Sequence record: OZ035760.1
Origin: Tequatrovirus NIC06P2
Reading direction: 5' to 3' (one strand)
DNA: 64,000 nucleotides
Part shown: in pieces, positions 46,650 to 46,736 of the stretch
Numbering within the stretch: position 1 is the stretch's first letter
Layout of the letters: every line of letters starts with the position of its first letter
The notes under the pieces: model-generated
What the model was told of the DNA's origin: nothing
What the model saw: only the letters and a program-made list of their open reading frames with translations
Databases searched by the model: none
Position numbers and translations under genes: made by a program

Positions 46650-46736
46650 AGTCATAAATTGGTGGGGAGTGGTGGAGTCGAACCACCCGAGTCGCAATGA
46701 CAATGGATTTACAGTCCACACCGCTACCTCTACGGG
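46650..46736 (-). tRNA. tRNA-Tyr-like gene (anticodon GUA), type II with long variable arm
   Basis: acceptor GGGGAGU/ACUCCCC, anticodon loop CUGUAAA, 14-nt variable arm, T-arm GGUGG-UUCGACU-CCACC, encoded CCA; one extra nt in the 8-10 linker. Confidence 0.5.

Follow-up and report, generated by a model that had tools for sequence, protein, structure and literature searches.

A tRNA-Tyr(GUA) gene with an extended connector lies beside segB in a Tequatrovirus relative of phage T4

The T-even phage T6 carries a tRNA-Tyr gene whose part in escape from a tRNA-cutting defence has been described by Chihara et al. 2026 (PMC13096335). According to that report, the PtuAB nuclease of Septu cuts E. coli tRNA-Tyr in the variable arm, at C48/A49, during T6 infection and also cuts the T6 tRNA-Tyr itself at C48. 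The T6 tRNA is detected in northern blots and is called relatively unstable. T6 is rescued from Septu by overexpression of tRNA-Tyr and is sensitised by deletion of its tRNA region; overexpressed phage tRNA-Tyr also partly protects the host tRNA-Tyr. Escape mutants contain tandem 718-bp units made up of tRNA-Tyr and a C-terminally truncated segB. These repeats arise at microhomology and need SegB nuclease activity, UvsX and UvsY. For T4, in which segB is present and tRNA-Tyr absent, escape is impossible (PMC13096335).

A tRNA-Tyr of T5-like phages neutralises the PtuAB of retron-Eco7 (Azam et al. 2024, PMC11555353). There is no rescue unless anticodon and stems are intact, which speaks for a function in translation and against a decoy; E. 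coli tRNA-Tyr, when placed under the phage promoter, is just as effective (PMC11555353). A tRNA-Tyr gene had already been listed in the T2L cluster by Brok-Volchanskaya et al. 2008 (PMC2330249). That paper reports that SegB cuts at the 3' ends of tRNA genes and that its preferred site lies in the T2L tRNA-Asn.

We have analysed a stretch of 64,000 nucleotides from Tequatrovirus NIC06P2 (OZ035760.1; hereafter the window), in which ARAGORN identifies nine tRNA genes on the minus strand, tRNA-Tyr(GUA) among them (Table 1). An initial annotation made from the sequence had described an 87-nt Tyr-type gene with anticodon GUA, on the minus strand between segB and a tRNA with anticodon CAU. Gene, length and anticodon are borne out by ARAGORN and by direct reading of the sequence, and the Rfam tRNA model also accepts the gene. 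Its neighbours and strand were correctly given; its coordinates, 46650-46736, were not, and have to be shifted by 10 to 46660-46746. All of the type II features listed can be read from the sequence: a perfect 7-bp acceptor stem (GGGGAGU/ACUCCCC), the anticodon loop CUGUAAA, a long variable arm, the T-arm GGUGG-UUCGACU-CCACC, and a discriminator A followed by an encoded CCA. As in bacterial tRNA-Tyr, the anticodon loop has 7 nt, with U33 and a purine at 37. The identity elements of the E. coli tyrosyl-tRNA synthetase are G1-C72, A73, the GUA anticodon and the long variable arm, the first two being identity elements of bacterial tyrosyl-tRNA synthetases in general. All are present here, and we count this in favour of a functional tRNA-Tyr. 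The bases that make tertiary contacts (U8, A14, G18G19, A21 and the T-loop UUCRA) are also all present and are invariant or nearly so in the family alignment described below.

Table 1. Position of the tRNA-Tyr gene, its parts and its neighbours in the window
Feature	Position	Strand	Basis or remark
tRNA-Tyr(GUA) gene, 87 nt, class II, long variable arm, encoded CCA	46660..46746	-	ARAGORN; Rfam RF00005, 30.3 bits; equals annotated tRNA-Tyr of UPWr_E4
Connector UAUC (U8 A9 and two extra bases), acceptor stem to D-stem	46736..46739	-	Family sequences, RNAalifold
D-arm, whole	46721..46735	-	Register with full pairing; Infernal agrees
D-stem CCGU/GCGG; D-loop AGAGGUA	46732-46735/46721-46724; 46725-46731	-	
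Anticodon GUA, in loop CUGUAAA (46708-46714)	46710..46712	-	Sequence, ARAGORN
Long variable arm U-GUC-AUUGC-GAC-UCG	46688..46702	-	Sequence equals T6 over whole arm
CAU-anticodon tRNA, encoded CCA	46756..46832	-	ARAGORN: Met; T4 homologue annotated tRNA-Ile
Gln, Leu, Gly, Pro, Ser and Thr tRNAs (upstream remainder of cluster)	46834..47324	-	ARAGORN, Rfam scan
segB, GIY-YIG homing endonuclease, 221 aa, intact	45948..46613	-	ORF; starts 46 nt downstream of tRNA-Tyr
9-pair hairpin TCAGTTCTTTATTAGGGACTGA	46615..46636	-	Terminator-like scan and sequence; ends 1 nt before segB ATG
ATTAG microhomology copy 1, 5' edge of tRNA-Tyr	46746..46750	-	5 nt shared exactly with copy 2, 718 bp away
ATTAG microhomology copy 2, segB codons 194-196	46028..46032	-	Pair also in T6
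tRNA-Arg(UCU)	45868..45944	-	3 nt past segB stop codon

The gene is real but atypical. With the Rfam tRNA model RF00005 it reaches 30.3 bits (E=1e-4 in 251 nt), a marginal pass, as the gathering score is 29; its eight neighbours in the cluster score 54-73 bits with the same model. In a permissive scan the tRNA-Sec model (RF01852) even outscores the general one (35.4 against 30.3 bits), yet it remains below its own gathering score of 47. The long variable arm and the extra bases near the junction of acceptor and D-stem are shared with tRNA-Sec, and hence the model aligns. We have rejected this identity: the alignment has many non-pairs, the anticodon is GUA and not UCA, the acceptor stem has 7 bp and not 8, and the D-stem has four pairs and not 6 bp. 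Annotations of homologues based on tRNAscan label them tRNA-Tyr.

On sequence comparison the window is assigned to a relative of T4 (Tequatrovirus) and not to T4: across the tRNA cluster, identity to Escherichia phage UPWr_E4 is 99.4%, and across 24 kb, identity to several Tequatrovirus isolates is 95-97%. For such a phage nine tRNAs are nothing unusual; T2 and T6 both carry tRNA-Tyr. Comparison with the T4 cluster agrees with the earlier statement that T4 is without this gene. There, the CAU tRNA stops at the discriminator base and is followed by approximately 40 nt of unrelated sequence leading into segB; the CAU tRNA of the window is identical to this T4 homologue except for the CCA, which is absent from the T4 gene. 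In the window the order is CAU tRNA with its CCA, a 9-nt spacer, tRNA-Tyr, a 46-nt spacer and segB. It is CAU tRNA, Tyr, segB, Arg in T6 and CAU tRNA, Tyr, Asn, Arg in T2, which lacks segB. The cluster of the window is thus a mosaic, with a T4-like part from Gln to the CAU tRNA (including Pro and Ser) and a T6-like part comprising tRNA-Tyr and segB. The tRNA-Arg allele that follows is 81% identical to that of T2 and 57% identical to those of T4 and T6. We also note that the T4 breakpoint, where tRNA-Tyr is missing, falls exactly at the 3' end of the CAU tRNA (locus L001, 1174-1247).

Among published systems the gene is closest to that of T6 (KMB99_gt002), with which it shares 86 of 87 bases and the complete variable arm, including the C48/A49 position (raw numbering) at which Septu cuts. 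The single change (C to U), at raw position 41 in the anticodon stem, gives a G-C pair in the window and G.U in T6. The two phages also have in common the upstream CAU tRNA, both spacers, the ATTAG repeats and a SegB that is 99% identical (218 of 221 residues, compared with 210 of 221 for T4 SegB). They differ in that the window keeps tRNA-Pro and tRNA-Ser, both missing from T6, and in the tRNA-Arg allele downstream of segB. The sequence features of the T6-type module are found in the window: a near-identical tRNA-Tyr with C48, an intact segB directly downstream and the ATTAG pair 718 bp apart. With the T2/T2L gene (AP018813; PMC2330249), which likewise follows the CAU tRNA, 85 of 87 bases are shared; the slot held by segB in the window is there occupied by tRNA-Asn, the SegB-preferred cleavage site.

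More distant relatives differ in both structure and setting. The tRNA-Tyr of the T5 family (T5, SP15; approximately 83% identity) belongs to the same structural family, with a UAUU connector, a 4-pair D-stem and an identical variable arm and T-loop, but has its own acceptor and anticodon stems, the D-stem CUGU/GCAG and an 8-nt D-loop. Its genomic setting also differs, being a large tRNA-rich region that has a strong promoter of its own and in which segB is absent. The E. coli tRNA-Tyr genes (tyrU, tyrT and tyrV) share GUA in a CUGUAAA loop, G1-C72, A73, the GUC/GAC variable stem, the total length from position 8 to 26 and the local sequence at the Septu cut site. They differ in that the connector has 2 nt, the D-stem has 3 bp (CCC/GGG) and the D-loop is larger, and there is no BLAST-level similarity.

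The remainder of the cluster region includes several further features. The tRNA-Arg(UCU) has a D-loop (AAUUGUAUA) without GG and a T-loop UUAGAAU with A in the usual place of C56, and scores 71 bits with the Rfam tRNA model; from its sequence this looks like a compensated swap of the tertiary pair G19-C56 to U-A. Next on the minus strand (approximately 45600-45866) are homologues, well conserved, of rnaD and rnaC, two small RNAs of T4, and beyond them is a strong terminator-like hairpin with a T-run (45528-45551). At the rnaD/rnaC position UPWr_E4, the closest annotated relative, is annotated with two short hypothetical proteins, which are probably spurious calls.

The spacing of the two ATTAG copies is exactly 718 bp, as in T6. 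Approximately 0.5 such 5-nt matches are expected for any fixed spacing, so that the evidential weight of the pair lies in its agreement with T6. The second copy is placed so as to fit the C-terminal truncation of approximately 28 aa reported for SegB in PMC13096335. A search for microhomology of at least 6 nt with a spacing of about 718 bp found none at the expected junction, where the repeat has only 5 nt. Between tRNA-Tyr and segB, the hairpin TCAGTTCTTTATTAGGGACTGA would cover the likely ribosome-binding site of segB, which suggests translational control of the endonuclease. A promoter scan returned 4 sites compared with 8.2 expected from shuffled sequences, and thus no excess. The SegB-preferred motif reported in 2026, RAWTSGAAC, occurs on the plus strand at 46849-46857 and 47100-47108, in the regions of the tRNA-Thr and tRNA-Gly T-arms. 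The T-arm of tRNA-Tyr (GGUUCGACUCC) is one base off this motif and fits the looser consensus of 2008, GGTTCRANTCC.

To describe the fold, 27 distinct family sequences were collected and 21 of these, from at least nine phage genera plus plasmids, were aligned. The proposed cloverleaf has standard pairs in 98.8% of cells. Both sides of the pair have changed at 12 of 24 pairs, with compensatory changes in every helix, and the observed values were reached by none of 500 shuffles. Sliding the 3' partners by 1-3 columns reduces pairing to 45-59%, and RNAalifold returns an identical cloverleaf when no structure is supplied. The acceptor stem is paired in 99.3% of cells, with five of its seven pairs covarying, and the variable-arm stem (GUC-AUUGC-GAC) in 98.4%, with UA to CG and GC/AU variants. 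The anticodon loop CUGUAAA is invariant except for one U32 variant. When the gene of the window is folded singly, the minimum-energy structure differs from a cloverleaf and has a z-score of just -1.5. An alternative single-sequence fold, GCGGUG/CAUUGC, was discarded: it is unsupported where the variable loop differs (Roth80 and the Enterococcus phage) and is not chosen by RNAalifold.

It is in the D-arm that our description departs from the initial annotation, which had proposed one extra linker nucleotide and a 3-bp D-stem. We find two extra bases, in a 4-nt connector that is conserved in the family, and a 4-pair D-stem, CCGU/GCGG, with three Watson-Crick pairs and one U.G. This register is paired in 100% of cells of the 21 aligned homologues, and compensatory versions occur in T5-like phages (CUGU/GCAG) and in two other viral lineages (CGGU/GCCG). 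The D-loop is canonical, with A14, G18 G19 and A21. The register drawn by ARAGORN, with a 2-nt linker and a UCCC/GCGG stem, is paired in 60.7% of cells and has an internal C.C mismatch in all 21 sequences. With a 3-nt linker and a 3-bp stem, as in the initial annotation, the sequence does not pair consistently. Infernal picks the CCGU/GCGG stem at the cost of a misaligned acceptor stem. The low Rfam score results from this, as the extra connector bases are absorbed by the misalignment.

Canonical tRNAs have two bases at the junction of acceptor and D-stem (2020 review, PMC7609411). Instead of these two bases (positions 8-9) the connector has 4 nt in the window and 4-5 nt across the family. It starts with UA in all 27 distinct sequences and continues with two or three freely varying bases (UC, GU, GA, UA, UU, AU, AUU or UUU); its four columns are unpaired in the RNAalifold consensus. 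For background we used a broad scan of viral contigs with a generic tRNA-Tyr pattern, which yields mostly unrelated tRNA-Tyr and serves for connector length only: among 115 distinct phage tRNA-Tyr the connector has 2 nt in 77 and 4 nt in 9. The literature searched, including the available parts of PMC13096335 and PMC2330249, contains no comment on the connector.

Homologues of the 87-nt gene were found in 1,353 phage records, 1,344 of them with at least 80% coverage, and most are annotated as tRNA-Tyr. T2, T6 and many other Tequatrovirus phages are included. Identity is 97.7% in Vequintavirus, 92% in Karamvirus, 85% in Phapecoctavirus, 82-87% in Felixounavirus and Suspvirus, 83% in the T5-like Tequintavirus and Epseptimavirus, 80% in Klebsiella phages and 77% in the Enterococcus Schiekvirus. 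A further 272 records are copies on plasmids of 72-120 kb, with 88-93% identity and adjoining other tRNA genes. In one E. coli plasmid, NZ_CP024264 (locus L134, 3001-3087), the gene belongs to a tRNA group, Asn-Tyr-Thr-Ser, with a DNA ligase gene nearby. This setting suggests that the E. coli plasmids with this tRNA-Tyr are phage-plasmids. No BLAST-level chromosomal match was found in 5,426 E. coli genomes; with matches in plasmids only, a host origin of the gene is unsupported.

The copy in Enterococcus phage 113 (locus L133, 301-385), which has a Gram-positive host, agrees in the acceptor stem (GGGGAGU/ACUCCCC) and in the CCGU/GCGG D-stem and has the connector UAUA; its variable arm is shorter, its T-loop is UGCAACU and CCA is not encoded. 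Such a copy suggests that the gene has either passed between phages whose hosts differ widely or descended from an ancient common source.

The tRNA-Tyr family is systematically under-annotated; owing to the unusual connector, its members are easy to overlook or to label wrongly. ARAGORN misses the homologue at 4 of 13 loci (Entb_43, ESCO5, phiSUSP1 and Enterococcus phage 113). Among the matches listed, 21 of 60 phage records have no annotated feature at the match, and in the VSe12 record the homologue, which is T5-like, carries a pseudogene flag. The initial annotation had left open whether the gene is functional or a decaying pseudo-tRNA, that is, a relic beside a mobile endonuclease gene. 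The marginal Rfam score, the non-canonical connector, the single pseudogene flag and the lack of annotation in about a third of sampled records would fit decay. Against it are the number of records that cover at least 80% of the gene, the fully paired D-stem and the covariation that is seen in all helices across the family. The near-identical T6 gene, moreover, has been published as expressed and functional (PMC13096335). Single chromosomal tRNA-Tyr genes with the same architecture in Tahibacter and other bacteria also argue against it. We therefore regard the probability of a pseudo-tRNA as negligible.

These chromosomal genes also refute the idea that the connector architecture is exclusive to phages. 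The UAxx connector and the same D-arm recur on large chromosomal contigs, each time in a single tRNA-Tyr gene: in species of Tahibacter and Lysobacteraceae, in a gammaproteobacterial MAG and in a Desulfatiglandales MAG. In Tahibacter the gene is next to an IS1595 transposase, and no phage genes are seen around it. In Vequintavirus, similarity to the window ends approximately 5 flanking bases beyond the gene; the tRNA therefore appears to move as a gene-sized module, and block transfer together with tRNA-Arg between Vequintavirus and the window, which we had considered, can be discarded on the same grounds.

A broader proposal is that the 4-5-nt connector and the CCGU/GCGG D-stem define a distinct functional tRNA-Tyr subclass, which has moved as a gene-sized module among unrelated phages (Tequatrovirus, Vequintavirus, Karamvirus, Phapecoctavirus, T5-like, Felix-O1-like, Suspvirus, Klebsiella and Enterococcus phages) and E. 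coli plasmids. We put this forward tentatively, and consider it more probably wrong than right. If true, the altered core might change recognition by tRNA-targeting nucleases or modification enzymes. A modest novelty lies in the connector of 4-5 nt found throughout the family and in the occurrence of one type of tRNA-Tyr in unrelated phages and plasmids.

Very probably we are dealing with the tRNA-Tyr(GUA) gene of T6 and T2, functional in this phage too and of value against host defences. Its identity, conserved fold and layout, and the microhomology, are observed in the window. For expression, cleavage, rescue and amplification we draw on the published T6 and T5-like work, which the phage studied here would be expected to follow. 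The gene, its place beside segB and its role have all been published, and the finding is already known.

By this analogy, tRNA-Tyr would be transcribed with the minus-strand cluster, from Gln to Arg and then the rnaD/rnaC homologues. Processing enzymes of the host would excise it, the CCA being part of the gene. The host tyrosyl-tRNA synthetase would charge it, and both UAU and UAC would be read. It would top up the supply when PtuAB-type nucleases (Septu, retron-Eco7) cut the variable arm of tRNA-Tyr. Protection would depend on dose, since the T6 copy is itself cut. SegB could raise this dose through recombination at the ATTAG repeats, producing tandem copies of tRNA-Tyr and truncated segB.

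A high demand for tyrosine codons could also maintain a functional tRNA-Tyr, with no meaningful role in evasion of defence in this phage. Tyrosine accounts for 4.55% of codons in the long ORFs of the window, 78% of them UAU, and for approximately 2.8% of codons in E. coli; the genome is AT-rich (34.8% GC) and the gene sits in an ordinary tRNA cluster. However, T4 has a similar composition and thrives without the gene. In addition, the greater sensitivity of T6 to Septu on deletion of its tRNA region, and its rescue by extra tRNA-Tyr (PMC13096335), are not expected if demand alone kept it. We consider this explanation unlikely. The two roles are not mutually exclusive, and supply for tyrosine codons may add to the value of the gene.

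Less likely still is a tRNA-shaped decoy, which would soak up tRNA-Tyr-cutting nucleases and not serve translation. This would agree with the cleavage of T6 and host tRNA-Tyr by Septu at the same variable-arm position and with the partial shielding of the host tRNA by the overexpressed phage tRNA (PMC13096335); the odd connector could, in principle, impair translation. In the T5-like members of the family, however, a change of anticodon abolishes rescue, and E. coli tRNA-Tyr performs equally well from the phage promoter, which points to translational supply (PMC11555353). The conservation of the synthetase identity features and of the bases for tertiary contacts (U8, A14, G18G19 and the T-loop) speaks against it in the same way. 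A functional tRNA-Tyr with anti-defence value thus remains the reading that we prefer.

For annotation, the consequence is that a tRNA-Tyr of this type can be absent from the record (approximately a third of those sampled), flagged as a pseudogene (once) or provided with a misdrawn D-stem by ARAGORN. For the biology of the phage, the gene marks it as a carrier of the T6-type tRNA-Tyr/segB module, a T-even means to outrun tRNA-cutting defences by dose. Sensitivity to Septu varies among the T-even phages: T4, which has no tRNA-Tyr, is strongly restricted, T6 is intermediate and T2 is resistant. The presence of the module therefore helps to predict host range and sensitivity to defence.
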